Of a stretch of DNA of 64,000 nucleotides, positions 1 through 64,000 are shown one piece after another. This stretch comes from an uncultured virus (IMG/VR IMGVR_UViG_3300033148_002355). Lineage: Duplodnaviria > Heunggongvirae > Uroviricota > Caudoviricetes. The notes beneath the pieces were generated by a model. That model did not search any database and was not told the DNA's origin. It worked only from the letters and a program-made list of their open reading frames with translations. The position numbers and the translations under genes are program-made. The first letter of the stretch is position 1. Each line of letters starts with the position of its first letter. The stretch lies in the IMG/VR virus record IMGVR_UViG_3300033148_002355; one strand, given 5' to 3'.

Positions 1-6
1 ATTGCG

Positions 7-231
7 TTAGCGAGCATTAAACTCATCTAACCAAACATCTTTTGCTACTGTCCAAGCTGTTGCCCAATCAATATAGGTTTTGGTAATATTCCCTTTATCA
101 TCCTCATAGTCGTGCCATCTACGCCAAACTATTGATAAGTGCATTTTTACAGCTAAAAAATAACGCTCGCTAACATAAGCTATATGTAATGCCTTTTTAG
201 CGAGTTTTGATTGTTTCAGTTTTTTAATCAT
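7..231 (-). CDS. Small hypothetical protein (74 aa, MIKKLKQSK...), translated through an attC-like site arm
   Basis: ORF track 7..276; ATG at 231 follows an A-rich leader. The stop TAA coincides with the GTTA core at 6-9. Confidence 0.7.
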   Translation of the reverse strand: MIKKLKQSKLAKKALHIAYVSERYFLAVKMHLSIVWRRWHDYEDDKGNITKTYIDWATAWTVAKDVWLDEFNAR

Positions 232-299
232 TGTATTTTCTTTTAAGTTAGTGTAGTAATTTATCAAGGTCGGCACTACACATAGCCAAACCGTTAGAG
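168..299. repeat. attC-like palindromic site 1
   Basis: CGCTAAC-ATAA-GCTATATGTAATGCC ... GGCACTACACATAGC-CAAACC-GTTAGAG; 15-bp arms with 2 mismatches that are G:T pairs on the bottom strand. Confidence 0.8.
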
Positions 300-313
300 T
301 GCATTAAAACGCA

Positions 314-530
314 CAATAACAATGTATAAGTAAACATAAAATTTACTTATCTTTTCGGTTTATATGGTAAGTATAACTAAATCCAATAGCTGTTCCTAAC
401 CATATCCAAGTCATTACATCTCTGTGATATTCTACATCAAAGCAAAATATCAAATAGTTAATTATTGCTAATATTAAATATATCCATTTCATAGTCGTAA
501 ATTTTTCGTTTCTTATACTAAGCGTTATAA
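314..530. repeat. attC-like palindromic site 2 (loop contains a whole gene)
   Basis: CAATAAC-AAT-GTATAAGTAAACATAAAATTTAC ... GTAAATTTTTCGTTTCTTATAC-TAAGC-GTTATAA. Confidence 0.8.
343..492 (-). CDS. Small two-TM membrane protein (49 aa, MKWIYLILAII...)
   Basis: ATG at 492 within track ORF 343..552; two hydrophobic segments; lies between the arms of site 2. Confidence 0.65.
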   Translation of the reverse strand: MKWIYLILAIINYLIFCFDVEYHRDVMTWIWLGTAIGFSYTYHINRKDK

Positions 531-535
531 ACAAA

Positions 536-742
536 TTACTTCCATAAGTCACTTGTCGCTATCTCATTAACTAAAGTTATTCTTTGTTTCAAAGCTATTA
601 ACCTATGTTTTAACTCTCCTACAACGTGAGAATGATAAGGTCTGTACTTTTTATTCTGTTCGTCTTTTTGGTACTTTTTAACTCTTTGAATGTTCTCTTG
701 TACCATTTTTAATTCTTGCTCTAATAATTCTAATTGTTTCAT
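536..742 (-). CDS. Hypothetical coiled-coil protein (cassette gene)
   Basis: 68-aa ORF bounded by GTTATAAAC (524-532) and GTTTATAAC (753-761). Confidence 0.7.
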   Translation of the reverse strand: MKQLELLEQELKMVQENIQRVKKYQKDEQNKKYRPYHSHVVGELKHRLIALKQRITLVNEIATSDLWK

Positions 743-752
743 ATTTCCATCA

Positions 753-781
753 GTTTATAACACAGTATAAAAACAACTGCG
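753..781. repeat. attC-like left half-site (right arm not recognisable)
   Basis: GTTTATAAC-ACA-GTATAAAAACAACTGCG matches the left-arm pattern and is complementary to the cassette start at 524. Confidence 0.55.
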
Positions 782-800
782 TAGATTTTTATTCTTATCA

Positions 801-1148
801 TTACCTGCAATCTAACTCCCAACTTTCTTTAGAGCATCGTTTTATTAAAATGCTATCATATAAAGAGTTATTACTAACGCTGTACAACATATCTCCTGCC
901 ACAGTGAAGTCTACACTCAAGTCTAATTTATCGCTGTAGTAAACGCTGCCTGAGAGCCTATAACAACTGTTTCCTATCCTTACATACTCCGGATATAAAC
1001 TTATCGCTCTTTGCTTGTTTAAAAACATACAAACCTTTTTAGCTAATACATAGTCATCTATCCACGCTACTTGTTTATCGTTTTCATCAACTATGCTCTT
1101 TCCGAACTTTCGTTTTATCTTGTAACTTCCTTGTTTTATTTTTTCCAT
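801..1148 (-). CDS. Hypothetical protein
   Basis: 115-aa ORF co-oriented with neighbours. Confidence 0.65.
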   Translation of the reverse strand: MEKIKQGSYKIKRKFGKSIVDENDKQVAWIDDYVLAKKVCMFLNKQRAISLYPEYVRIGNSCYRLSGSVYYSDKLDLSVDFTVAGDMLYSVSNNSLYDSILIKRCSKESWELDCR

Positions 1149-1229
1149 ACTGCTAACCTAATAACTATTTAGTAGTTGTTAAAATTATTAACATCCTTTA
1201 ACAACATATCGAAGTGTTTAGGTTTAGAG

Positions 1230-2910: not shown

Positions 2911-2976
2911 ATCTTCTGTTTTCGTTCGTGGATAAAGGTATTGATTTTTTTTGTACTTTTATATCAAACTGAAAAG

Positions 2977-5466
2977 ATGCAAGAAGACGAATTTGATGAG
3001 TTTGAGGATATATTTGAGAATCCTTCACCATTATACAAAGATACGCCTAAACCTTCTAGGAGAAACGATTCGTTTTCTCAAAGAAACGGGGGAGGTATAA
3101 AAGAAACTGTTGTACAGCAGGAAGCTAGAAAAGAGCACGAAGAAAGTGAAAAGTCTTCAAACCTGCTCGAAGGTCAATCGTTCAGAGAGGCTAGAGGTAA
3201 AATCAAAAAAGAAAATCACGGTAACTTTTTAGTTGATATGTTTAGGAGAGGTCTTCCATTGACGGAAGCTCAAATAGACTCTATTGCTGAATTAAAATTA
3301 ATATCCGACGAAGAGTTGAGAGGTATTAAAATTGTTGATCCAGATTTAACTGAAAGCGACAAGACTCCATTCGATAAAGATTTATTACAAAACTTAGGAA
3401 CTACTTTAAAATCAAAAAGGGTAGGGTTTGGAGTTTACCAGCATTGCGGGAGAGAAATTGAAACAGATGAGTGGATGCCTAAATCTGTAGTATCTCACAC
3501 CCCAGAGTTTGTGAAATGGATTAACGCCATGAACAACAAAGGGTTTCAAAACAAAGGGCATTACGAACCATTAGAATTATACGTACAACAAGCTCATAAC
3601 TGGTTATCAGATGGTGACAGTATGGAGAACTACGACTTTGAAGATGATAGGATAGATTACTTTGAACAGGAGTGGAGCAGGTGTTTAGAGAACACACTTT
3701 ACTTTGTTGATAAGTATTTAAATATAAAAGAGTCCGATATGGAGGATGCTGGTAGTATGAGCTACATAGCTAAACCGGTACATGAAGTTCTTTTGTTTTT
3801 AGCTGATTGTCGATATAGTTTAATTATTGGTAAACCGAGACAGATTGCAGCGACTACTACCTATTTAGGTTTTGGTTTAAAAAAGATGATGTTCAATAAG
3901 AACTTCTTTTTGAAGTTTGTTACAATGGATGTCGATACAGCTGAGGAGATCATGGAGGATAAATTAAAGTATCCTAACAGTGAAATACCAGATTGGTTAC
4001 GTGCGAGTGTATATGGAGATTCACATGAAGGTCTTCATTTTGCTAAAAGAATACCAGGAAAGAAAGGTAAGAGATCAGGAGCCAATTCAAAGTTTCATGT
4101 AGTTGCTCCAAGTGTGTCGGCAATCAATGCGGGATCTCCTCCATTGGTATTTGTTGATGAAGCCGGTTATATCAAAATGCTTGGAAAGATGATCAGGGAA
4201 TCTCGTCCAACTATGTTTAGACCTAATTCAACTACTGGGGAGTTAGAAATGAAAAGACAAATTATTATATGGTCCACTGGAGGCGTAGATGAAGGAAAGA
4301 ATAAGGTAAAGACTAAATCGTTTGAAGAAGAGGTGAAGCATGCATTAGCTAAGTGGGAGGAGAAGAGTTATGATTATGGGATTATACCTGTATTCTTCGA
4401 CTGGACAACAAGGCCGGGGATTACAAAAGAGTTTTATGAAAGAGAGGAAAGGAATTACTCATCAGGGGACGAAGGGGAGAGAGAGCAAAGAATGAATCAG
4501 TTCAGGTTAACTTATCCAAGTTGCTGGGATGATATGTTCTTAAGTGAAGAAAAGCTTATTGTTCCTATATCATTTATACGGGAGAACGAAAGAAGGATAA
4601 ACGATGCTCAAGCTGATTTTAAACCTCAGCCAGGATACTTTGAACCTATCATTGACAGAACCCAGCAAGGAAGTACAGGTTACAGTGCTAGTAGCGATTT
4701 AGGGAAGATTGTAGGGGCTAGGTTTATTCCTGTAGACTTTGATGATGCTAGTGCGTCAGCGTTTATTTTTATGCATCCTGAAAAAGGTTGGGAGCATAGG
4801 TATTACAAAGGAACGGATCCAATCATGACTGACACTGGTTATTCTAATATGGCAAGCGCGATATTTGATAAGCATATAGGTACTATATCTGCGATAGTTA
4901 ATTATAGGAATGACGATCATAAGAACACGTTCTTACAAACATTTTTACTTGGGTTGTATTTTAACATAGATGGTCATGTTAACGGTATCCCTGAATTAGT
5001 TGAGGCGAATATTGGAACAGCTTATACTGACTTTGTAGATTACAATGGTTACGAGAGGACGATGGTTTATCAAAACGAATTACCCACTGCTTTTCGGGGG
5101 GGTGGTCAATTAATTGGTGTTGATAATAAGGGTCGTAGGGCTGAGTTTATAATAGCTAGATTAAAAGAATTAGTATCTTTATATCACCAGAACTTTTTCT
5201 TCCTGGAGATATTCCAGCAATTAAGGACGTTTTCTTGCAGTTTGACAGCTTCAGGAGCTGCGGTGTGGAAAGTGAGTGACAAGAGACGGTATAAGGATGA
5301 TGTTTTATATGCTATAGTTTTTGCTTACATTTGTAGTCTGTGTTACGACAATAGAGAACCTAAAAGGTTAGAGAGTGTGAACGATAGGTATGTTACAAAA
5401 CATGAGTTGGTCAGAGGTAGTGATGGAGGATTAACTAGGGTCGCAGTAAAAAAGAGAATAAGTTAA
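2977..5466 (+). CDS. terL: Terminase large subunit with long N-terminal extension
   Basis: Walker A-like KPRQIAATT, Walker B LVFVDEAG, motif III WSTG, nuclease GTDP and C-terminal KDDVLYA; lies upstream of the portal. ATG at 2977. Confidence 0.88.
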   Translation: MQEDEFDEFEDIFENPSPLYKDTPKPSRRNDSFSQRNGGGIKETVVQQEARKEHEESEKSSNLLEGQSFREARGKIKKENHGNFLVDMFRRGLPLTEAQIDSIAELKLISDEELRGIKIVDPDLTESDKTPFDKDLLQNLGTTLKSKRVGFGVYQHCGREIETDEWMPKSVVSHTPEFVKWINAMNNKGFQNKGHYEPLELYVQQAHNWLSDGDSMENYDFEDDRIDYFEQEWSRCLENTLYFVDKYLNIKESDMEDAGSMSYIAKPVHEVLLFLADCRYSLIIGKPRQIAATTTYLGFGLKKMMFNKNFFLKFVTMDVDTAEEIMEDKLKYPNSEIPDWLRASVYGDSHEGLHFAKRIPGKKGKRSGANSKFHVVAPSVSAINAGSPPLVFVDEAGYIKMLGKMIRESRPTMFRPNSTTGELEMKRQIIIWSTGGVDEGKNKVKTKSFEEEVKHALAKWEEKSYDYGIIPVFFDWTTRPGITKEFYEREERNYSSGDEGEREQRMNQFRLTYPSCWDDMFLSEEKLIVPISFIRENERRINDAQADFKPQPGYFEPIIDRTQQGSTGYSASSDLGKIVGARFIPVDFDDASASAFIFMHPEKGWEHRYYKGTDPIMTDTGYSNMASAIFDKHIGTISAIVNYRNDDHKNTFLQTFLLGLYFNIDGHVNGIPELVEANIGTAYTDFVDYNGYERTMVYQNELPTAFRGGGQLIGVDNKGRRAEFIIARLKELVSLYHQNFFFLEIFQQLRTFSCSLTASGAAVWKVSDKRRYKDDVLYAIVFAYICSLCYDNREPKRLESVNDRYVTKHELVRGSDGGLTRVAVKKRIS

Positions 5467-6121: not shown

Positions 6122-8407
6122 ATGAGCTCATTTGCCACAGACTCTTCTAGTTTTGACAGACCAAATAGAATAACTACTTCAGAAAAAGAAAAGAACACTC
6201 CAGAATATCATGTTAGAAATGCGAGGTTCGCAATTGCTACAAGCTCAAGTAGTCAAAGGAGTTCGTTTATTAATAAGACAAAAATAAACAAGCAGTTCTT
6301 CAAAGGCGGGGATAGTCAATGGATTCTTGATGAAGATAAAGAGGCTTTCTTAAAGGATGACACAGGACAAGAGAGTGGCAGGATTAAGGCTGTAAACAAC
6401 GTAGTAAGACCAGTAGTTGCTCAATACCAAGGTAACGCTAATAGGTTAGAATTGAGTGCTAGATCTCAAGCTGTTTCGGAGAGGGCTAAGAATAGGATGA
6501 CAGAAGCTTTAAAGAAGAAGCTTTTCATGTTTGATGTTTCGTTAGAATCACCTGCGTATTCTGATTATATTAAAAAGAAACACGGTTTAGGAGATACCGA
6601 AGAAGAAACTGAAGCTATATTCGTCAATTCGTATACTGACAAGTATGTAGAGAAAATGAACAACCTTATTGTATTTATTGAAAACATAAATAGGTTAGAT
6701 AGTTATAAAATAAAACTTGCAGAGAATTTAGCTTTATCTGGTCTTGCAGTAATGTACGGTTATGAGTCTAATGGTCATTTGAAATTTAAGCCTATTGAGT
6801 CTGAAGATTTTATATTTGATAACACTGCGGAGCGTTACGATTTAACAGATGGTGAGTTTCAGGGTATGGTGGACAACATGACACCTACGGGGGTTTATGA
6901 AAGATACAATACTTCTGAGAAGGACTCTGAAGCAATTGAAAACTATGTAAGTAATATCGGAGGGGCTATAAACCAAACTACTTTAGATGATAATATCTAC
7001 AGCGCGAATGGAAGAAGAGCTGCTAGTGGTTTACAAGTGCCTATTTATAAAATATACTTCAAAGATATTCAGAGAGAGGAGTATGGTTTTGTTATTGATG
7101 AATACGGATACACTCATTTAGTAGAAATCAACTATGCAGCTCCAGGAGAAGATAAGCCAAAGTACACAGAGGCTGACGTTGTAACTCCTCCAGAGAGTGC
7201 AAGGAATAGATTCTTATTTAAAGGTAAGAAAACCGCCTTTTGTTATAAAGAGATTCTTAGGTATTGTCACTTCATTCCTTCTGAATTTTTAGCGAGAGCT
7301 GAGAAGAATGAAGATAAAAGAAAACAAATATCTGATATAGTGTTAGAGTGGGGGGTAGATCCTTACCAAGATTCTACATTAGAAAATCCTAGTGAAGTTA
7401 AGTTTCCTTTTAAAGCTCACGCTTGGGGTTATGTAGATGGAGAGGTTATCTCCCCGGTAGACGATGTTATTAGTCCTCAGAGATTAATAAACAGAATATT
7501 ATCTGTGACAGAGGCTAACATAAACAACTCAGGAGGGTCTAACGCTGTGCTTGATTTAGATGCTTTTGAGCCACAAGACGTTAAAGATGGAACTGTTGCT
7601 AGAAATATGAAGCAAGGAAAACCCGTTTTTGCTAGAACAAGAGGTAAGGGTGTTCCTAACAGTATAGGGAAGTACGACGACACTCCTAGTGATGGTATAT
7701 ATAAAATGTTTGAGATTATTCCTTTAATGCGAGATGTTATTCAAACTAGTACTGGAGTTAACGAGCCATTACAAGGCGGGGAGCAAAAAGGAACAGGAAC
7801 TCAACTTGTAGGTGTTACAGAATTACTTATACAAAGAGGTTCGCTTATTCAGGAGCCTTTTTACAAAGCTATTGAGGAGGTTTACATACAGATGTACGAA
7901 AGTATGATGACTAGAGGCAAGCAGATCTATATTGAAAACGAAAGGGTTCTTTCAAACGCTACAGGCGATGATGGGGTGTATACTTTCCAGTTAACAAAAG
8001 ATATGCTTAACGAGGACTTAAGAGTGTTTGTTAAGAGAGAGAACAACGAGGAAACCTTAAAGAATCAAGCTAATCAAACGTTACTTACATTTATGGAAAT
8101 GGGTCTTATTGATAAGAAAACATTTGCACAGCTTTATAATAGGTCCACTCCTAATGATGTGGTTAACGGATTAAGACAGCAGGTAGCAGCTGAAATTGAA
8201 TTGCAACGTGAGCAAGCTAAACTAGAAGAGCAAGCGTCAGAGACTCAAGCTATTCAAGAAGATGCTGATTTAGCTTTAGCGAAGGAGGAAGAGATAGAAA
8301 AAGAGCAAAGGGATTTACAAACTTTCGCTAAGCAAGAAGCTATAAAAAACGAAGGAAAGGAGCAGGAGCAAATAACAAAGGCTGTATTGCAGGAGAGGTC
8401 TGAATAG
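6122..8407 (+). CDS. Portal protein (podovirus/crAss-like)
   Basis: 761 aa; position; STGVNEPLQG segment and coiled-coil C-terminus typical of P22-like portals. Confidence 0.8.
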   Translation: MSSFATDSSSFDRPNRITTSEKEKNTPEYHVRNARFAIATSSSSQRSSFINKTKINKQFFKGGDSQWILDEDKEAFLKDDTGQESGRIKAVNNVVRPVVAQYQGNANRLELSARSQAVSERAKNRMTEALKKKLFMFDVSLESPAYSDYIKKKHGLGDTEEETEAIFVNSYTDKYVEKMNNLIVFIENINRLDSYKIKLAENLALSGLAVMYGYESNGHLKFKPIESEDFIFDNTAERYDLTDGEFQGMVDNMTPTGVYERYNTSEKDSEAIENYVSNIGGAINQTTLDDNIYSANGRRAASGLQVPIYKIYFKDIQREEYGFVIDEYGYTHLVEINYAAPGEDKPKYTEADVVTPPESARNRFLFKGKKTAFCYKEILRYCHFIPSEFLARAEKNEDKRKQISDIVLEWGVDPYQDSTLENPSEVKFPFKAHAWGYVDGEVISPVDDVISPQRLINRILSVTEANINNSGGSNAVLDLDAFEPQDVKDGTVARNMKQGKPVFARTRGKGVPNSIGKYDDTPSDGIYKMFEIIPLMRDVIQTSTGVNEPLQGGEQKGTGTQLVGVTELLIQRGSLIQEPFYKAIEEVYIQMYESMMTRGKQIYIENERVLSNATGDDGVYTFQLTKDMLNEDLRVFVKRENNEETLKNQANQTLLTFMEMGLIDKKTFAQLYNRSTPNDVVNGLRQQVAAEIELQREQAKLEEQASETQAIQEDADLALAKEEEIEKEQRDLQTFAKQEAIKNEGKEQEQITKAVLQERSE

Positions 8408-14323: not shown

Positions 14324-17300
14324 ATGAATACAGAACATGGTGCTGAAGATATTAGGACGTTTTCCAAAGGTGCTAACTCGGATAAAGAGAAGGAGCTTCT
14401 TGGCGCGAAAGATAATGGAGAGTATATCAATTCCAGGAACGCCAGAAACTATTCTGTTGACGGCAATACCGGAGCTTTAGAAAAGATTAAAGGGGAAGAG
14501 TTAATCTACCCTAAAGCAGGAGCTTTAAGTGTTAGCCATAATTGCATAGGTGTAGCTAAGATAAAAGATGACGTTATAGAGTTTTGGTCAAGCTCCGTGT
14601 TTCCAGCTGATATTGATACAATAAGGGTAAACGGTACTGTAGTGGCAGCCAGTAACGATTTGTTATTTAGTCACGATAAAAACCTTCAACTTGACACTAA
14701 TGATAAATGTGAGGGGGGAGAAGTGTTTATTACTGATAACGTTACCGTTCCGATGATATTCAATATTGGAGATATGCTTGCAAGTGTAGGTACTCCAAAG
14801 TATTTTGCTGACTTCAATAGAAAGCTATACGAGATTAATCTTTCTACTCCGGTAGACAAACCTGTATTTACTAAGTTAGTAACTATCGGTGGAGGTGGAG
14901 GTCTTCCTGTAGGTCAATATAGTTACGCGATAAGATACGTGAACTCTGACGGTGATAGAACTAATTTAAGCCCTAGCACTCCATTGATACCTGTTGTGCA
15001 AGCGAACGGACCAGCAAGTGCTGAATATCCAGGAACTAAAACAAGAGGATCGTCTGCTAACGTCTCATTACCAACAGCTTACGGAATAGAGATTAAGTTT
15101 AGGGTAACTAACTATTTAGAGTACGATTCAATAGAGGTTGTAAGATACGCTTGGAATGCAGGAACTCAATTAGGATTCAGTCCAAACCCTAAGATAATTG
15201 GAAGGGTAGATGTTTCTGGAACTACAGTAGGGGTGATAGCATTTACCGATCCTATAGATTCTAACATAGAAGAAACTATTCCTGAAGATGAACTAACTAA
15301 CCAATTAATGTTCATTGAACGAGCTAAAGCTATTCGTTATTTTGATAAGAGATTGGTTTTAATGAACTATTCATTAGCAGAAAGAGAGTTTGAGCCTATA
15401 TTCACAGAAAGAAACGGAGAGGTTATGTTTCCTATAATGGATGCTATGGGTAAGCTAGGACATAATGATGCTCATAATCATACTTATAAAAAGAGTTACC
15501 CTAGCGGTGAGAGGTTTGGTTTTGCAATCAATGCTTACGATGGGGTGTCCGCTAAAGCTTTTGCAGTACCTATAGATGATTTTGGGAATTTTCAATTCCC
15601 TAACAGGAGGGACGAAATAGTTTCGGGGTCTAATAGTGACATCTATTCAACCGGAGCTGTAACAGCAGCAAATACAGATGGCGGTGTATCGAAAACGTTT
15701 GAAGTATTTGATTTAGAAGACACTAAAGGTAAAGACGATATATGTTCGTTTAAGGGGATTTTAGACGGTACTAACCTGGCAGGGGCTCCGGAGGGTACAA
15801 AGTCTAATTCAGACGTAACTCAAGACTGTACAGAAGACCCTGAGCTTTCTGGAGGGATAACAGCTTTATCAGGAACAAGGGTAGCTGCTCCTTATTCAGT
15901 ATTTCATCCAACAGGAGATAATGACCCTAGAACAGATGGTCATAATTACAGAATAAATACTTGGATTAAAAACGGAAGTGCTGAGGTTAGTTACGATCCA
16001 GACATGTTTGGTTTAAATTACTTCAGTAAAGGGATTGCATTAAACGGGATTGCTAAAAGCAGTATACCTGATTGGGTTAAGTCGTTTACTGTGGTAAGGA
16101 CAGAACGAGCTAACAGGGTGGTTTGTCAAGGTTTAATGATGTACTCTTTAAACCCGGCAGACCCTTCAGGGGCAGGTAATAAAGCTTTAGCTAGTAAAAA
16201 CACAGATGAGTTCTGGTTTCACTCACCTGATATTAATGAGGGGGTTGTTGATCAAGCGATTATTGACGATATGCAAAACAACCCGAATAATTATAAGATA
16301 GAATTTGTTTCTCCTTTAGGTTTTGCGTCAGAGCTTTATAACTTTGATCAATCAGACATTTCTGGAGAGGATAGGTGTTGCGATTTAATGACTTATGCAA
16401 GAGTTTTAAAAGATGGACCTCTTGTTACTAAAGTCATTAACCCTTCAGAAGGTATTATTGGTAATAATGGTTACACTGCGTATAATAAGTATAGAAATTC
16501 AGAATCTGTAAATGGAGACTTCTTTAGCACTCCTGACGGAGGTAATAGAACTGCTCAAATGATAGGTTTTAATAGTCTTACTATTGGACGTGGTAGTTAT
16601 TTTGAGATAAAGACTCAAGAAGACATATACAACCATTCTACAACTCATGGAAACGCTGATTTCGTTGATCCGGATATGAAAAACTGGACCGAACCTTTTT
16701 ATATGGTTAACATAATTCAGGAGGGAGCTCAGATAGTTGATCAGAATATTGATAAGTATAAAGATACCGGAGTTTACGTTAAAATGGAAAGCGTAATAGC
16801 TGAAGGTGTTCTTGGTGTAACAAAGCCTAGAATTGAATTGATAGATGAGAGGTGGGAGGATTGCATATCAGCTTTGGCTGTGGGTGATCCAACATCATCA
16901 GAAGAGAGGTTTATCTATATGAGAGAACCTTCTGGAACCGATTTCCCTTGGGTGAATGCAACTTATCTAAGCGGAGCTCAACAGACGATTATAATTAACG
17001 ACATAAGTGCTAATGGATTCCATGTTTTACCTTCAACTATTAAAGTTTACGGGTTGTACACTCATGACGTTGTAACTGATAATGAAATTTACTTGGAGTT
17101 AAACTTTAGTGGATTTGACACTATTCCAGTAGGAAACGTATTACTTGTTAAGTATAATGAGAATGCTCCTATTAAAATATTTGGAGGAGACACTACGGTA
17201 GGAGAGACTATATTCGCTCCTATCGACATGACTGTAGACGTAGAGAACTGGGACTTCTGGAACGCTGCATCAATAGCAGCGGGAGCAGCTATAGCTCCTT

Positions 17301-59759: not shown

Positions 59760-60272
59760 TTATACTTTCTTAAACTCCCGTTTTTTAAGATAATTTAACT
59801 TCATTAATTTATAGTCGTCAGCATCTGGAACTTCCACTCCGTATATCATTTCCACATGACTTACTATATCGTTGATAAAATCTATCAACCTCCCCTTTGT
59901 CATATCTCTTTGACTCAGTAATACAAATACATCACTACCGTCATTATCGGGGATTACATCCTTTGCAAACATCATCTTCATAGCTATCATACACTCGACC
60001 TTATCTAATACCTCTCCTTGGTCCCTTTTAACTTTCATGACAAAAGGTATCAGTACACCATTTAAGTAGTTGTACATCCTTCTTTTGCCTTCTATAGATG
60101 TAGTTTCTTCTATTGTAATAGTAAGTTCCTCCCCGCGTTTTTGAAATAGGAATGAAGTTAATGATCTTACATCTGTCAAACGTATGAGCATATCTCTTAA
60201 TGAAGAGTCTCTTTTAAATGTTACGTTGGTTATTATTTTGTCCATTTGTTTAATTCTATCGGGGTGTATCAA
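59760..60272 (-). CDS. NinB/Orf-like recombination protein (tentative)
   Basis: MYNYLNGVLIP...MKMMFA...SQRDMTKGRLIDFINDI...GVEVPD pattern. Confidence 0.5.
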   Translation of the reverse strand: MIHPDRIKQMDKIITNVTFKRDSSLRDMLIRLTDVRSLTSFLFQKRGEELTITIEETTSIEGKRRMYNYLNGVLIPFVMKVKRDQGEVLDKVECMIAMKMMFAKDVIPDNDGSDVFVLLSQRDMTKGRLIDFINDIVSHVEMIYGVEVPDADDYKLMKLNYLKKREFKKV

Positions 60273-60652
60273 AAAGGTATAATCATAAGCCTACCTCCAG
60301 CTCTTTGACACCATAAATCTAAAGCTCCACAACTAATGTTTACTATTCCTCTTTCTGCTTGTGCATAATAACTTCTATTAGTACCTACTAACAAAGCCAT
60401 TTCGGTTTGCGTTAAGTTTAAGTTGCTCCTTAAATACTTAAGCATCTTTCCTCTTGATAATCGTTGAGGTTTGTTTTCATATTCAAGTATAGCTTTCTTA
60501 TTCCTTGGTGTCTTAGGTCTTTTTTCTATTATTCTTTCTCTAGCTTCTTTTTCATCTGTTTCTGAAAAAGCAGCCCTAATATGTAAGTCTCTTTCTTCAG
60601 CTTCTGAAAGCGGTTGGTTTCCTGTTCTTGCTTTTTCTATTTTTCTTGGCAT
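60269..60652 (-). CDS. XRE-family HTH transcriptional regulator
   Basis: LKYLRSNLNLTQTEMALLVGTNRSYYAQAERG. Confidence 0.85.
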   Translation of the reverse strand: MPRKIEKARTGNQPLSEAEERDLHIRAAFSETDEKEARERIIEKRPKTPRNKKAILEYENKPQRLSRGKMLKYLRSNLNLTQTEMALLVGTNRSYYAQAERGIVNISCGALDLWCQRAGGRLMIIPF

Positions 60653-60684
60653 TGTGTTTTTATTTATTTGCGGGGAGAATTAAA

Positions 60685-61167
60685 CTACCCTTGGTTAAAA
60701 TACTTGTTTACATCATTATCTATTACTTCCTTACAACAATTAACTAAACTAACATACTGAGCAAATCGTCCATAATCTTTACCTAACACATGAACAATAC
60801 TAAACAACTCCTTACGATACTTAATAATACCTTTAGCAATTTTCCTGTACTCTCTCTCTTGCACATTACTATCAGTAACCTTTTCTTTCATCTTTACCAT
60901 CTTCTCTAATACACGATATAAGTTGTTAAGCACTTCTTTATCACTTAATAGTTTTACTTCGTCTATTCGCTTGTAAATAGAGCAAATAAATGTACTTAAA
61001 TTTCCTACTAGGTCAGTTAGTACTAAATACTTCACCTCCTGAGTTACTTGTCTTTTATTCCCTTGTATTTTGATGGTAGGATGTGTATTGTCTCTGCCAT
61101 GTATAATCAAGTAAAAGTATAACGTGTGTATGTTGTCTTTGGTTGTTTGGTGTACTGTGGTTATCAC
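60685..61167 (-). CDS. Hypothetical protein
   Basis: 160-aa ORF, GTG start. Confidence 0.6.
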   Translation of the reverse strand: MITTVHQTTKDNIHTLYFYLIIHGRDNTHPTIKIQGNKRQVTQEVKYLVLTDLVGNLSTFICSIYKRIDEVKLLSDKEVLNNLYRVLEKMVKMKEKVTDSNVQEREYRKIAKGIIKYRKELFSIVHVLGKDYGRFAQYVSLVNCCKEVIDNDVNKYFNQG

Positions 61168-61252
61168 TCTTTTTTATTTTTAAGTTGTTTCTTTAGATTT
61201 CTTATCATTAAAAAAAGTACTATTATAATCATTACTGGCGGTATGTATATCA

Positions 61253-61507
61253 TCATTTTTGATCTTTTAAAGTTTGAGCGCACCAATTAAGCGAGTGCAT
61301 TTCCGCTTCGAGTATATCTATTTTATTCTTTAACCCTACATCATGCATTACATTTCTACTTGACTCTCTCTCTTTCGTAACTGCTTTCCATGTCTTCTCA
61401 GCCTCTTTAAACTGTTTTGTATACTTCTTTATCACTTGAACTTTTAAACAAGCTAACGACTCTTTAATGTCTTCGGGTGTTATTGTTTTGTAAGTGTTTT
61501 TGGTCAT
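61253..61507 (-). CDS. Hypothetical protein
   Basis: 84-aa ORF. Confidence 0.65.
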   Translation of the reverse strand: MTKNTYKTITPEDIKESLACLKVQVIKKYTKQFKEAEKTWKAVTKERESSRNVMHDVGLKNKIDILEAEMHSLNWCAQTLKDQK

Positions 61508-61643
61508 AGTTTATATTTATTTGTGAATAGAGCAATAGCCTTTTTTTTAAGGTTTACTCTGGTTTATAATTTACTTGATATAATAATCAAAGCTATTATA
61601 CTAACAAAGATTATCCATGCTATAATAAAATCATTCTCTTTGT

Positions 61644-61838
61644 TCATACTTTTTCAATTGTTAATCCTTCGTGCTTATCTCTTAACTCTTTTACCTCTGT
61701 ACTATTATACCTTCTCGCTAGTGCGGGTCTATCTGTTAACTCTGGTGTGTTGTTAACTATGTACCATACAAATAGCCTCCCTTTTTTTAGTATATGGGAT
61801 TTCGCGTATGTTTGTCTAGGGAATTTTGATCCTTTCAT
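61644..61838 (-). CDS. Hypothetical protein
   Basis: 64-aa ORF. Confidence 0.6.
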   Translation of the reverse strand: MKGSKFPRQTYAKSHILKKGRLFVWYIVNNTPELTDRPALARRYNSTEVKELRDKHEGLTIEKV

Positions 61839-61866
61839 AATTTGCGGGGTTTTAGTTTTTAGTGGT

Positions 61867-62070
61867 TTATATTATGTTAATTTTTACTGAATAATAGCTG
61901 CCGTTATTTAAAAAATCTTTCCAATCGCTTTCAGTGTTATACTCACACTCTTCAAATTCGTCTTTACTCATTTCTGAAGTCCTAAATTTTGAAAAAATCT
62001 TACCACCTACATATTTTCTAATTGTAAATGTTCTTTTTGATTTATTTGCTGTTGCTCTTAAAGTTTTCAT
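61867..62070 (-). CDS. Hypothetical protein
   Basis: 67-aa ORF. Confidence 0.65.
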   Translation of the reverse strand: MKTLRATANKSKRTFTIRKYVGGKIFSKFRTSEMSKDEFEECEYNTESDWKDFLNNGSYYSVKINII

Positions 62071-62115
62071 TTGATTTTGTTTTAGTGGTTTTTATTTTTG
62101 CGGGGTTTATTTTTA

Positions 62116-62283
62116 TTAAATATATAATTCTTTACCTTTCAAGTCTTCAACTGTGTCTCCTTGGCTAGATCCTAAGTACGTATAGTGTTGTTCGTCTGTA
62201 CAACATTCGCAGTTAATAGGTATCCAAATTTGTAAACCTTGTTTAAAAAACTGTTGTGCTTGTGTTAATGTTATTTTTGTCAT
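62116..62283 (-). CDS. Small hypothetical protein (55 aa, MTKITLTQAQ...; not in track)
   Basis: Hand-translated ORF with an A-rich leader. Confidence 0.6.
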   Translation of the reverse strand: MTKITLTQAQQFFKQGLQIWIPINCECCTDEQHYTYLGSSQGDTVEDLKGKELYI

Positions 62284-62303
62284 TTTTTTTGTTTTTATTA
62301 GAT

Positions 62304-62364
62304 TAATAACGGAGATGTAAAACGCAACTCCTTACAGTCGCAGACGTTTACACGGTCGTTGTGC
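62304..62364. repeat. attC-like site (short)
   Basis: TAATAAC-GGAGA-TGTAAAACG ... CGTTTACA-CGGTC-GTTGTGC. Confidence 0.65.
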
Positions 62365-62586
62365 TTAATTAGGTAATAGACTAAGCATATTGTCCCAAAC
62401 GCATACACTGTCATACATTCCATTACCTGAGTACGATATTGCTCCTACATTTACAATATCAAACTTTTCACCGTTTGGAATCTCTACTGTTTCGGGTGTT
62501 ATGCTTGTTATTAATACTTTTCTATCGCTTACATTACATAAGTAAATGCAACCTTCTTTTAATTGTGATATTTTTAATGTTTCCAT
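62365..62586 (-). CDS. Hypothetical protein (cassette gene)
   Basis: 73 aa; bounded by GTTGTGCTTA (62358-62367) and TAAGCACAAC (62595-62604). Confidence 0.7.
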   Translation of the reverse strand: METLKISQLKEGCIYLCNVSDRKVLITSITPETVEIPNGEKFDIVNVGAISYSGNGMYDSVCVWDNMLSLLPN

Positions 62587-62597
62587 AATTTAACTAA

Positions 62598-62689
62598 GCA
62601 CAACACTACCTATAAAAGCATAGCGTCGGGCTACTTGGTTTAATAATTAAGCGTATTACTGGCTACGCTTTATAGCCTCAACGTTGTAG
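62598..62689. repeat. attC-like site
   Basis: GCACAAC-ACTAC-CTATAAAAGCATAGC ... GCTACGCTTTATAG-CCTCAAC-GTTGTAG. Confidence 0.8.
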
Positions 62690-62693
62690 TGCA

Positions 62694-62834
62694 TTAGATA
62701 AACTCTATGTTATCAATATGAACGTTTTCTATTTTGTTGTTATGCTCAACTTTAATCATAACAAAATCATTTACTATGATGCTACAAACTTCTGCTATGT
62801 CACATCCCCAAATTACTTTACTTCCTACTATCAT
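62694..62834 (-). CDS. Small cassette gene (46 aa, MIVGSKVIWG...; not in track)
   Basis: Hand-translated; bounded by GTTGTAGTGC (62683) and GCACTACAAC (62864-62873). Confidence 0.65.
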   Translation of the reverse strand: MIVGSKVIWGCDIAEVCSIIVNDFVMIKVEHNNKIENVHIDNIEFI

Positions 62835-62866
62835 TTTATTTTGTTTTTTAGTTATTAATTAACGCA

Positions 62867-62922
62867 CTACAACAATTTGTATAGTACATACTTCGTACAG
62901 CCCCATACAAGGGGCGTTATTT
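62867..62922. repeat. attC-like site (short, 56 bp)
   Basis: CTACAAC-AAT-TTGTAT ... ATACAA-GGGGC-GTTATTT. Confidence 0.7.
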
Positions 62923-62937
62923 TTTATTTAGCGGGGA

Positions 62938-63414
62938 TTAATATCTTACTCCTGTTTCTAAAAAATCATATTCATTAACTTCTAAACTTTCCTTAATACA
63001 TTCATCACTCATTAAGTATTCATACTCTTTTTGTAGCATATTAATATACTGTAACCCTATACTATCTTTAAACATCCTGATAGTACCTTCTTTTTGCTCT
63101 AAACCTTTCATTACTCTCTCTCTCACTTGTTTCTCAAAACATTTAGCAGTGATATACGTTTGACATTCTTTCCCGTGCTCTGTCAATATTGTATTAACAA
63201 TTTCATCAATAGGCTTATTTAGTACTATTTCAATCTCTCGCCTGTCAATGTCAAAACTTTTAATTGTTGCACCTATATTCTCCATATCATCATAGATGCA
63301 ATTCCACCACTCGCAGTATTCTACGTTAAAATATCTGTTATCTTCAATTGCTTTCTCTTGTGCTTCCTTGCTTAGTTCCTTGAACTTGTAAAGGTTTAAT
63401 TTGATTGTTTTCAT
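62938..63414 (-). CDS. Hypothetical early protein (MKTIKLNLYKFKELSKEAQEKAIE...NEYDFLETG)
   Basis: 158 aa, acidic; pattern common among small early phage proteins. Confidence 0.75.
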   Translation of the reverse strand: MKTIKLNLYKFKELSKEAQEKAIEDNRYFNVEYCEWWNCIYDDMENIGATIKSFDIDRREIEIVLNKPIDEIVNTILTEHGKECQTYITAKCFEKQVRERVMKGLEQKEGTIRMFKDSIGLQYINMLQKEYEYLMSDECIKESLEVNEYDFLETGVRY

Positions 63415-63645
63415 AGCTTCTATTGATTTTTATTTGTAGTTATGTGTATTTATTGGTTTTTAAAATTCTCCTACTGTTACATTAACTGTTATCTCTTCGC
63501 CTTCCTCCGTGCAACTAGTCCAAGTAAAAACAACTTGTTCGCTGTTCGCTCCTATTCCTTGTTTCATGTATTCAAGGTCGCTTTGTGTAAAGTTTAATTT
63601 GATTGTTTTCATAGCTTCTATTGATTTTTATTTGTGGTTATGTGT
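63394..63645. repeat. 54-bp direct repeat (63394-63447 and 63592-63645)
   Basis: GTTTAATTTGATTGTTTTCATAGCTTCTATTGATTTTTATTTGT[A/G]GTTATGTGT; one mismatch. Confidence 0.9.
63460..63612 (-). CDS. Small hypothetical protein (50 aa, MKTIKLNFTQ...; not in track)
   Basis: Hand-translated; shares its start region with the downstream gene. Confidence 0.65.
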   Translation of the reverse strand: MKTIKLNFTQSDLEYMKQGIGANSEQVVFTWTSCTEEGEEITVNVTVGEF

Positions 63646-63695
63646 GTTTGTATACTTGTATGTAAAAAAAGTGCTTAGAGTCCTTTAAAATAAGT

Positions 63696-63845
63696 TTATA
63701 GTATTTTGTTTAGTTCTTCTATTTCTTCTGCAATGTATTGTATTTTAACTATGCTATCCTTTCGGGGTGCCTGTGTTGTTTCTACATTTGCATTAATAGC
63801 GTTTAAAAGTTCTTTTACTCTCTCTCTTAACTGGTCGTTTTTCAT
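63696..63845 (-). CDS. Small hypothetical protein (49 aa, MKNDQLRERV...; not in track)
   Basis: Hand-translated ORF. Confidence 0.55.
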   Translation of the reverse strand: MKNDQLRERVKELLNAINANVETTQAPRKDSIVKIQYIAEEIEELNKIL

Positions 63846-64000
63846 TGGATTATGTTTTTAATTAATATTGTTTTAATTCGTGGGTATGCGTTTAAATCTC
63901 CTTCGCTGTACTCAATGACTTTCACCGTGTCACCGTTAACGCTTAATATTCTATACTTGTCGCCTGTGGTGGTGGTTATAATTTGCCCGTTGTTTATCAT
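63842..64000 (-). CDS. Small hypothetical protein (MINNGQIITT...; may extend beyond the window)
   Basis: Hand-translated; ATGA overlap with the next gene. Confidence 0.5.
   Translation of the reverse strand: MINNGQIITTTTGDKYRILSVNGDTVKVIEYSEGDLNAYPRIKTILIKNIIQ

Follow-up and report, generated by a model that had tools for sequence, protein, structure and literature searches.

Can the small early genes of a tailed phage be carried and exchanged as cassettes, in the manner of integron genes? The question is raised by the record IMGVR_UViG_3300033148_002355, a 64,000-nucleotide (nt) stretch of DNA from an uncultured virus that is referred to here as the window. At its two ends, in array 1 (1-1230) and array 2 (61.5-64 kb), small minus-strand open reading frames (ORFs) are interspersed with inverted repeats and imperfect palindromes bounded by AAC and GTT. 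A preliminary description of array 1 had proposed an integron-like system of attC-like sites and mobile gene cassettes. The array is real and cassette-like, resembling in its logic the attC site clusters that have no integron integrase (CALINs). The two arrays are best explained as two stretches of a single leftward early operon of a novel marine phage.

Bracket and site elements of the two arrays

Two kinds of element alternate along the plus strand of both arrays, with no exception. One is a bracket, an inverted repeat of 10-15 bp with the plus-strand frame C-GTT-N7-ATTA...TAAC-N7'-AAC-A, which is common to brackets a, C and B, each of which holds one small minus-strand ORF. The N7 segment is specific to the unit and fully complementary to N7'; between brackets a and B it differs at four of seven positions, and all four differences are compensated in the partner arm. 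The arm at the 3' side of the ORF overlaps or abuts the stop codon, and the opposite arm lies 5-30 nt upstream of an ATG. The second element is a composite site that follows the plan AAC, spacer of 3-7 nt, stem of 7-23 bp, loop of 12-150 nt, stem partner, spacer of 4-7 nt, GTT. Array 1 is made up, in this order, of bracket a, T1, bracket c, T2, bracket e, f, ORF4 and g, and array 2 of S0, bracket C, S1, bracket B and S2.

Array 1
5-19: left arm of bracket a (CGTT AGCGAGC ATTA), holding the ORF1 stop codon and pairing with 161-175
7-231, minus strand: ORF1, 74 amino acids (aa) from the ATG at 231 or 46 aa from the ATG at 144
161-175: right arm of bracket a (TAAC GCTCGCT AAC A), inside ORF1 if the start is the ATG at 231
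172-295, plus strand: composite site T1 (AAC, 5 nt, CTATATGT...ACACATAG, 7 nt, GTT), inner stem of 9 pairs
197-204: third copy of TTAGCGAG, hairpin-forming with 166-173 in the predicted fold
292-321: empty bracket c (CGTT AGAGTGC ATTAAAAC GCACAAT AAC A), without an ORF inside
318-526, plus strand: composite site T2 (AAC, 3 nt, 23-nt arm at 324-346...22-nt arm at 497-518, 5 nt, GTT)
343-492, minus strand: ORF2, 49 aa, hydrophobic, a plausible membrane ORF, bracketed by the 23-bp imperfect stem 324-346/497-518
523-536: left arm of bracket e (CGTT ATAAAC...), abutting the ORF3 stop codon and pairing with 749-762
536-742, minus strand: ORF3, 68 aa, bracketed in weaker form by 523-536/749-762
749-762: right arm of bracket e, forming a helix with 523-536
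759-802, plus strand: putative short site f (AAC at 759-761, 5 nt, ATAAAAA at 767-773, 12 nt, TTTTTAT at 786-792, 7 nt, ATT at 800-802)
801-1148, minus strand: ORF4, 115 aa, alone among the array-1 ORFs in having a homolog in the related virus G001
1161-1218, plus strand: site g (AAC, 7 nt, stem including GTTGTTAAA at 1175-1183 and TTTAACAAC at 1197-1205, 7 nt, GTT), 11 pairs

Array 2
62308-62360 (AAC to GTT; feature 62301..62364), plus strand: site S0 (AAC, 5 nt, TGTAAA[A]CG...CGTTTACA, 5 nt, GTT)
62357-62371 with 62591-62605: bracket C (CGTT GTGCTTA ATTA...TAAC TAAGCAC AAC A), around ORF73 (62365-62586, minus strand)
62602-62685 (AAC to GTT; feature 62595..62692), plus strand: site S1 (AAC, 5 nt, CTATAAA[A]GC...GCTTTATAG, 7 nt, GTT), 9 pairs
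62682-62696 with 62860-62874: bracket B (CGTT GTAGTGC ATTA...TAAC GCACTAC AAC A), around ORF46 (62694-62834, minus strand)
62871-62919, plus strand: module S2 (AAC...GTAC hairpin...terminator-like hairpin GCCCC-ATACAA-GGGGC...GTTA)

As in integron cassettes, each bracketed segment begins with bases that can pair with those preceding its own AAC, over 10/10 positions in brackets a, C and B, 9/9 in e and 8/10 in c. In bracket a, GTTAGCGAGC at 6-15 is the reverse complement of 165-174 over all 10 positions, and the complete helix 5-19/161-175 contains 13 Watson-Crick pairs and two A.C oppositions on the plus strand, equivalent to G.T on the minus strand. The helices of brackets C and B likewise comprise 13 Watson-Crick pairs and two A.C each. 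Bracket e, with GTTATAAAC at 524-532 against GTTTATAAC at 753-761, has 11 Watson-Crick pairs, two A.C and one mismatch. Bracket c, with GTTAGAGTGC at 293-302 against GCACAATAAC at 311-320, has eight Watson-Crick pairs, one A.C and two mismatches, and has 15 of 17 bases in common with 5-21.

The strings that had been quoted in the preliminary description were all found in place, and their 10/10, 8/10 and 9/9 matches were reproduced. Its further claim, that the bases after each GTT match the next site and not their own, holds for 6/174 and 524/761; it fails for 293/320, where the next and the own site match equally (5/7 each). The two palindromes that it had delimited are not intergenic. The palindrome at 168-299, made of AAC (172-174), ATAAG, the stem arms at 180-187 and 278-285, CCAAACC and GTT (293-295), overlaps the first 22 codons of ORF1 if translation starts at ATG 231, and the palindrome at 314-530, made of AAC (318-320), AAT, the two long arms, TAAGC and GTT (524-526), contains all of ORF2.

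Non-random pairing of the bracket ends

Chance was assessed by counting complementary GTT...AAC pairs 30-400 nt apart and comparing them with dinucleotide shuffles, of which 200 were made for positions 1-1600 and 30 for the whole window. Positions 1-1600 hold one 10/10 pair (0.03 expected; reached in 6/200 shuffles), three pairs of at least 9/10 (0.61 expected; 3/200) and 11 of at least 8/10 (4.5 expected; 5/200). Window-wide, five 10/10 pairs were observed against 0.83 expected, a number reached in 0/30 shuffles, and three of these five bracket small ORFs in arrays 1 and 2. Pairs of at least 9/10 were not significantly enriched in the whole window (24 against 19.6 expected; 6/30 shuffles). 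The split-repeat signature reported earlier is real and non-random: cassette-end complementarity exceeds the shuffled controls that had been specified beforehand as its test, window-wide at the 10/10 level.

A second test, in which the 45 nt upstream of each ORF were paired with its own stop region and compared with the regions of all other ORFs, gave a similar picture. Four of the 26 window ORFs stand out (z of -4.0 to -5.2), all of them in the arrays:

ORF2: own 5'/3' pairing of -18.9 kcal/mol, z -5.1
ORF3: own 5'/3' pairing of -19.7 kcal/mol, z -4.0
ORF73: own 5'/3' pairing of -28.0 kcal/mol, z -5.2
ORF46: own 5'/3' pairing of -22.1 kcal/mol, z -4.2

None of 58 ORFs stands out in the same test on G001.

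Some of the bracket sequences recur nearby. Three of the five TTAGCGAG copies in the window lie within 1-204, with 1.43 copies expected window-wide, and a third copy of GTTGTGCTT lies at 62253-62262, inside ORF55; the left arm of bracket C is 105 nt away, and the copy is in direct orientation to it. The third copies at 62253-62262 and 197-204 suggest repeated events at these sequences.

When distances up to 600 nt are admitted, six perfect pairs are found, five of them in the minus-strand gene region (6/174, 56051/56387, 60248/60685, 62358/62604 and 62683/62873). Of the two perfect 10-bp pairs in the minus-strand block that are additional to the arrays, 56051-56060/56378-56387 and 60248-60257/60676-60685, one spans a 337-nt intergenic stretch and the other brackets a helix-turn-helix (HTH) regulator ORF (60269-60652), whose G001 homolog has no bracket.

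Architecture of the composite sites and the folding strand

Nivina 2016 describes attC sites as an R box, an unpaired central spacer of 5-6 nt per arm and an L box, with extrahelical bases on the L'' arm and a favoured bottom strand. With the plus strand taken as the top strand, the geometry of the composite sites matches that description. The triplets AAC (5') and GTT (3') bound T1, T2, g, S0 and S1; the putative site f, a 7-bp A/T stem to which the half-site at 753-781 of the preliminary description was completed by eye, ends in the degenerate core ATT instead of GTT. The succession of R box, unpaired spacer and L box is present in T1, T2, S0, S1 and g, and absent from S2. Spacers measure 5/7 nt in T1, 3/5 in T2, 5/5 in S0, 5/7 in S1 and 7/7 in g, and the inner stems have 8-11 pairs, 11 of them in T2, where ORF2 occupies the loop. 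From AAC to GTT, T1 measures 124 nt, T2 209, f 44, S0 53 and S1 84, as against 57-141 bp for attC, in which the bottom strand forms a stable imperfect hairpin.

The AAC-spacer-arm...arm'-spacer-GTT architecture of the preliminary description was borne out when the sites were defined by the bracket ends. All three intervals so defined (174-293, 320-524 and 62604-62683) contain an inner stem, of 9-11 pairs, against 22 of 6045 AAC...GTT pairs with at least 9 pairs under wider limits in the window, a background of 0.36%. At distances of 40-135 nt, at least 8 pairs were found in 19 of 2824 AAC...GTT pairs of the window, and inner stems are about three-fold enriched in the early regions (9/496 versus 33/5549); the thresholds of these scans were chosen after the sites had been seen.

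Ten helices together contain 104 Watson-Crick pairs, 11 A.C oppositions on the plus strand (G.T on the minus strand), no G.T on the plus strand and six other mismatches. Single-base bulges occur once each in S0, S1 and T2 (in T2, the T at 331), always on the plus-strand 5' arm, and there are none in T1, f or g. The 11:0 G.T bias and the position of the bulges both point to the minus strand as the folding strand. A reading of the brackets on the minus strand, which would make the ORFs canonical in orientation, was dropped; the bulges, the wobble bias and the breakpoints at 62360 and 62915 described below fit the plus strand.

Cassette variation among strains

Twenty public metagenome runs, which belong to 12 marine water and sediment studies, contain parts of 61000-64000. 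Contigs of four of these runs (X1, X2, X3 and X7, from four studies) were aligned on 60500-64000; rare circular forms are invisible in contigs, and the joints and loose ends given here are partial, with 26 further loose ends beyond them. Gene content differs between the strains, and the bracketed ORFs are strain-specific. The interiors of the cassettes (62372-62839), and with them the bracket C/ORF73 segment, are covered in X1 alone; the gap in X2, X3 and X7 means absence from the contigs, which is not proof of absence.

One replacement ends at two predicted GTT cores. In X3 and X7, positions 62361-62914 are replaced by 228 other bases; homology stops directly after the GTT at 62358-60 and restarts at the C-GTT at 62915-18, the two plus-strand cores that bound cassettes C and B. 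The module S2, which extends from AAC to GTTA, recurs in X3 and X7 within different surroundings, with at least four different continuations after 62919/62920, one of which, in both runs, is window sequence 804-834, the end of ORF4, directly after GTTA. The S0 core (about 62312-62360) is found in other flanking contexts in X2 and X7, and summed depth is raised over the S0 and S2 bins in X1, X2 and X3. In X2, X3 and X7, ORF49 is replaced from stop to start codon by a joint from 63697 to 63841. No strand-changing or back-joining joint is listed for the contigs of the four runs.

Relatives of the window and their gene content

No match to the window, by DNA or by terminase protein, was found in a phage collection of 50,697 records, and no relative was found among metagenome contigs and genome contigs. 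The sole relative found, in IMG/VR, is G001 (71,693 bp, matching ends, syntenic, about 70-80% nucleotide identity); the first 40 bases of the window and module S2 are absent from IMG/VR. The lineage is thus new to the collections, as it has no phage-record match and G001 as its only IMG/VR relative. An identical ORF73 is carried by a 70,894-bp contig, and for this reason about 6.9 kb of the source probably lie outside the window, between 64000 and 1. A search with ORF73 yielded no viral locus, and just two homolog clusters in the protein database.

G001 has no homologs of ORF1-3, ORF46 or ORF73 (for ORF2, at E < 0.001). The G001 homolog of ORF4 (57% identity) stands in inverted orientation to its neighbours, 6.7 kb from the conserved non-coding block, and the G001 homology upstream of ORF4 stops inside hairpin g. 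The unrelated viral contig L009 contains an ORF that is 81% identical to ORF1 over residues 39-85. The unit common to both consists of the 46-aa ORF with a leader of about 20 nt and ends just inside both bracket arms; L009 has no flanking repeat or bracket around the homolog, so the bracket belongs to the array and not to the gene.

A proposed cassette-exchange mechanism and the evidence against it

The explanation favoured here, which we hold to be possible, if somewhat short of probable, is that an unseen recombinase exchanges the cassettes structure-specifically, as in integrons, and that homologous recombination accompanies it. Accessory ORFs would be organised as cassettes on a plus strand that alternates bracket segments (GTT-N7...N7'-AAC, usually with one antisense ORF) and composite imperfect palindromes. 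Each bracket would be the remainder of a circular element whose folded palindromic site had been opened at G|TT. Modules would be gained, lost and swapped between co-occurring strains by site-specific recombination at or next to the cores, and the substrate would presumably be the folded minus strand. The enzyme may be a structure-specific recombinase encoded outside the visible phage DNA; an IntI-like or Xer-like tyrosine recombinase of the host would be an example. In parallel, repeated leader and terminator motifs would recombine with one another by ordinary homologous recombination.

Several observations weigh against this mechanism, the breakpoints among them. Changes in gene content with breaks exactly at G|TT had been anticipated; the one core-to-core replacement seen in two metagenomes, with both ends at GTT cores, agrees with this, and S2 has its boundaries at AAC and GTTA. 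The other events comprise two indels at direct repeats and at least eight breaks at stem/spacer borders or start codons. In X3, a joint from 61840 to 62097 deletes 61841-62096, and with it ORF67, between 12-nt direct repeats, a copy pair of the AAACCCCGCAAA motif that marks the deletion. In X2, a joint from 63393 to 63592 deletes 198 bases (63394-63591), and with them ORF50, between 44-nt direct repeats. Also in X2, the S0 core is common while spacers and flanks differ on both sides (breaks at 62316, 62318, 62350 and 62353), so these breaks are not at G|TT. Other contigs share a leader and start codon and then continue into another ORF (breaks at 62272, 62275, 62831 and 62847). The GTTA at some junctions is, moreover, simply G followed by the reverse complement of a TAA stop codon.

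The sites themselves raise difficulties too. The predicted folds are only marginally better than those of shuffled sequences: as single-stranded DNA (ssDNA), T1 (165-302) folds at -12.4 kcal/mol, with z -1.6 for the minus and -1.9 for the plus strand, and its minimum-energy fold consists of other local hairpins; S1 folds at -15.3 kcal/mol (z -1.8) on the minus and -13.0 (z -1.05) on the plus strand; and S0 has a z of -0.02. Site g (1149-1230) reaches z -2.5. Canonical attC sites carry 2-3 extrahelical bases on the L'' arm with a 6-bp stem between them, and none of the sites here shows this feature. T2 is 209 nt long with ORF2 in its loop, S2, the best-documented junction, is without an inner stem of the attC kind, its terminator-like hairpin abutting the stop codon of the next minus-strand gene, and the 5' bracket arm of ORF1 lies within the ORF1 reading frame. 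All array ORFs are on the minus strand, antisense to the sites, so that no top-strand ORF precedes its own attC as in integrons. The early region of G001 has neither bracket frames nor brackets. The after-the-fact thresholds of the stem scans count on the same side, as does the rarity of integrons in Bacteroidetes noted by Neron 2022.

The recombinase searches were negative. A six-frame search of the complete G001 genome for PF00589 gave no match, while 14/14 control genomes matched. No recombinase, integrase or transposase was found among the window ORFs scanned (62 ORFs with PHROGs, 41 with Pfam), and neither recombinase nor transposase among 22 G001 ORFs scanned with Pfam; the additional 10 kb of G001 encode a dUTPase and a T5orf172/MUG113 protein, and no recombinase. 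No integron integrase was thus found in G001 or among the window ORFs scanned, a scope that does not cover the about 6.9 kb of source outside the window. An integrase, attI and the cassette promoter Pc are required for a complete integron, not for a CALIN.

The arrays are therefore not filed as an integron, because the recombinase is missing, the genes are inverted, the folds are weak, T2 and S2 are exceptions and the breakpoints are mixed. What stands of the integron-like cassettes first proposed is the signature, the architecture and the strain specificity of the ORFs; the missing integrase, the antisense ORFs, the weak folds and the ORF enclosed by T2 do not agree with that proposal. That it represents a distinct Bacteroidota/phage system is possible. 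A broader proposal can be formulated: marine virulent phages, probably of Bacteroidota, would possess an integron-like system of their own, in which early accessory genes, likely for host takeover or anti-defence, lie antisense between attC-like sites whose folding strand has the sense of the transcript, and are exchanged at A|AC cores between co-infecting strains by a recombinase that is either supplied by the host or an unrecognised phage protein, the array being a phage-native platform rather than a passive fragment of a bacterial integron. In this full form it is doubtful.

Alternative explanations

Much of the variation could also arise from module shuffling without a site-specific recombinase, in which intergenic hairpins, the terminator and A-rich leaders serve as short homologies for the general recombination of the phage, in the manner of promoter early stem-loop (PeSL) cassettes. 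In a variant of this explanation, the palindromes may be fragile sites, with ORFs repaired into their centres and the split stems left as brackets. Shuffling would account for the deletions of 61841-62096 and 63394-63591, for ORF bodies exchanged exactly at start or stop codons (62272, 62275, 62831, 62847, 63463 and 63697/63841), and for an S0 core and an S2 that are common to several contexts and raised in summed depth. Genes for an exonuclease and for an SMC/Rad50-like ATPase are present in the phage, the empty bracket c and the hairpin at 1175-1205 are the same GTT...AAC stems without an ORF, and a precedent exists in the PeSLs (Arbiol 2010, PMC2839356). It predicts, however, neither the strict alternation of elements nor constant spacers of 3-7 nt beside AAC and GTT, and no unit-specific complementary N7. 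Nor does it predict the 11:0 wobble bias towards one strand, by which a single-stranded fold is indicated. As a full account of the arrays, module shuffling is on the unlikely side.

A single-stranded fold could also be one of RNA. The early polycistronic mRNA has the sense of the minus strand, and each ORF would be closed by a helix between its 5' untranslated region and its stop codon, with spacer hairpins in between, for processing, stability or translational control. All 11 wobbles are G.U in the mRNA sense, the 3' arms lie at or over stop codons, an ATG follows the 5' arms at a distance of 5-30 nt, the pairing of -19 to -28 kcal/mol is specific to the ends of each ORF, and wherever N7 differs between brackets a and B the partner arm shows the compensating change. 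On the other hand, the 0/58 result in G001 means that the pairing is not a conserved design; it is carried by strain-specific ORFs only, the ORF1 homolog in L009 is without a bracket, the AAC/GTT cores and the alternation are left unexplained, and the structures match no Rfam family. Regulatory RNA structure is accordingly judged improbable. Inverted repeats around units of 170-250 bp, together with the inversion of the ORF4 module between the window and G001, would suit invertible segments, or miniature transposons that end in inverted repeats. This is very improbable: no invertase or transposase was found in the scans of the window or G001, no strand-changing joint is listed in the contigs of the four runs, the repeat sequence differs from unit to unit and no target-site duplications were seen. 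The arrays thus show none of the hallmarks of a miniature inverted-repeat transposable element or insertion sequence, namely the same terminal repeat in all copies, a target-site duplication and a transposase. Chance repeats in AT-rich DNA would fit the lack of window-wide enrichment of pairs of at least 9/10 (24 vs 19.6 expected), the weak folds and the choice of several criteria after the sites had been viewed. They are scarcely credible in view of the 10/10 pairs (5 vs 0.83, 0/30 shuffles), the common frames and compensated N7, the own-versus-other pairing with z down to -5.2, and inner stems in 3/3 intervals against a 0.36% background.

Relation to known systems

It is already known that phages can carry parts of integrons and that their hypervariable regions can contain regulatory cassettes. 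CALINs have been reported in virulent phages, including a Polaribacter phage, with attC sites recombined by IntI1 (Qi 2023, PMC9892861). In comparison with CALINs, the present arrays share AAC/GTT cores at the site ends, a cassette start complementary to the bases before its own AAC, the succession of outer pairing, unpaired spacer and inner stem, bulges on the top-strand 5' arm with the bottom strand folding better, a phage without an integrase and strain-variable cassette content. They differ in that the ORFs are antisense, the complementarity spans 10-14 bp instead of 6-7, the bulges number 0-1 instead of 2-3, the loops are large and unstructured (one with an ORF), the cores deviate from RYYYAAC/GTTRRRY and several breakpoints are not at G|TT.

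The PeSL regulatory cassettes of T4-type phages (Arbiol 2010) lie in hypervariable early regions rich in small ORFs of unknown function, with short conserved intergenic stem-loop modules, indels between repeated modules and shuffling among strains. Here, direct repeats of 12 and 44 nt at the two deletion joints and the reuse of S2 would be the counterpart. PeSLs are near-identical direct repeats with promoter and terminator, whereas the present repeats are inverted, specific to the unit and end in AAC/GTT.

Two further systems bear a partial resemblance. In CTX-type phages, a folded single-stranded attP is recombined by the host XerCD and the whole phage integrates at dif; as proposed here, an ssDNA hairpin serves as a two-arm recombinase site with an unpaired centre and the phage does not encode its own recombinase, but there are no gene-cassette arrays. 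The ultra-small mycobacteriophage mobile elements (MPMEs) are likewise units of a few hundred bp in phage genomes, with short inverted repeats around one small ORF; MPME copies are near-identical, whereas here each unit has a different ORF and repeat sequence. We know of no other described system that combines split complementary ends, a two-helix composite site, strict alternation and folding of one strand. In literature searches on phage integron parts and phage regulatory cassettes, no 15-bp bracket that combines constant wobble positions with a variable core was found, nor strict alternation of brackets and composite sites, nor the antisense gene orientation.

Early regions of virulent phages show the fastest turnover of host-takeover and anti-defence genes. 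The swapping of single small genes in early regions is poorly understood outside the PeSL case of T4. The window presents a regular and statistically robust cassette grammar, and public metagenomes provide direct evidence of cassettes that differ between strains. If structure-specific ssDNA recombination proves true, capture of the integron type would extend to virulent phages of an integron-poor phylum, with inverted gene orientation and no integrase on the element, and the grammar would provide a rule by which the mobile early genes of uncultured phages could be recognised from sequence.

Genome context and further repeats

Late and structural genes occupy the plus strand up to about 43.7 kb and include the large terminase (2941-5466), the portal (6122-8407), tail fibre proteins and an endolysin. 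The minus-strand block at 44-64 kb encodes a primase, a sliding clamp, a C5 methylase, an exonuclease subunit, an SNF2 helicase and many small ORFs, of which the small minus-strand ORFs at 1-1148 are the continuation; the SMC/Rad50-like ATPase was identified by profile scans of the window ORFs. A Bacteroidota host is only inferred, from a G+C content of 32-39% and a BT4734-like primase domain.

Site g is the final element of array 1 ahead of a conserved non-coding block. This 530-bp block (1230-1757), which is kept in G001 at about 71% identity overall with long identical runs, forms the border between the small ORFs and the late operon. A bidirectional terminator lies within it (1556-1592), and the block probably serves as promoter and control region for early transcription. 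It has no Rfam match; a sigma-70 promoter scan gave chance-level results only, and no shared promoter motif was identified. The sole match in Rfam and tRNA scans of the window is a tRNA-Gln (anticodon TTG) at 2339-2410, between a 175-aa ORF and the ORF at 2410-2910 on the minus strand, a short way upstream of the terminase gene.

In G001, GTTTGCTGTG is present eight times at 16026-16672 (L003), five times in direct and three times in inverted orientation, within a 1.1-kb divergent intergenic region that adjoins the T5orf172/MUG113-HTH gene (15101-15787). The copies resemble the iterons or operators that an origin or control region would contain, and no equivalent is seen in the 64 kb of the window.

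Several repeats lie at small ORFs of array 2. The minus-strand motif AAACCCCGCAAA occurs at 61839-61866, 62071-62115 and 62925-62937, just upstream of small ORFs, and early genes of G001 are preceded by related CCCGCACTTTT-AAAACGGG hairpins. The 44-nt direct repeat at 63394-63437 and 63593-63636 comprises the leader and first codons (MKTIKLN) of ORF158 and ORF50. The 67-aa ORF at 61867-62070 has a weak match to a SegE GIY-YIG domain (E 0.0018, under the Pfam cut-off), and a 64-nt piece of it (61908-61971) has a high summed depth and occurs in other contexts in runs X1 and X2.

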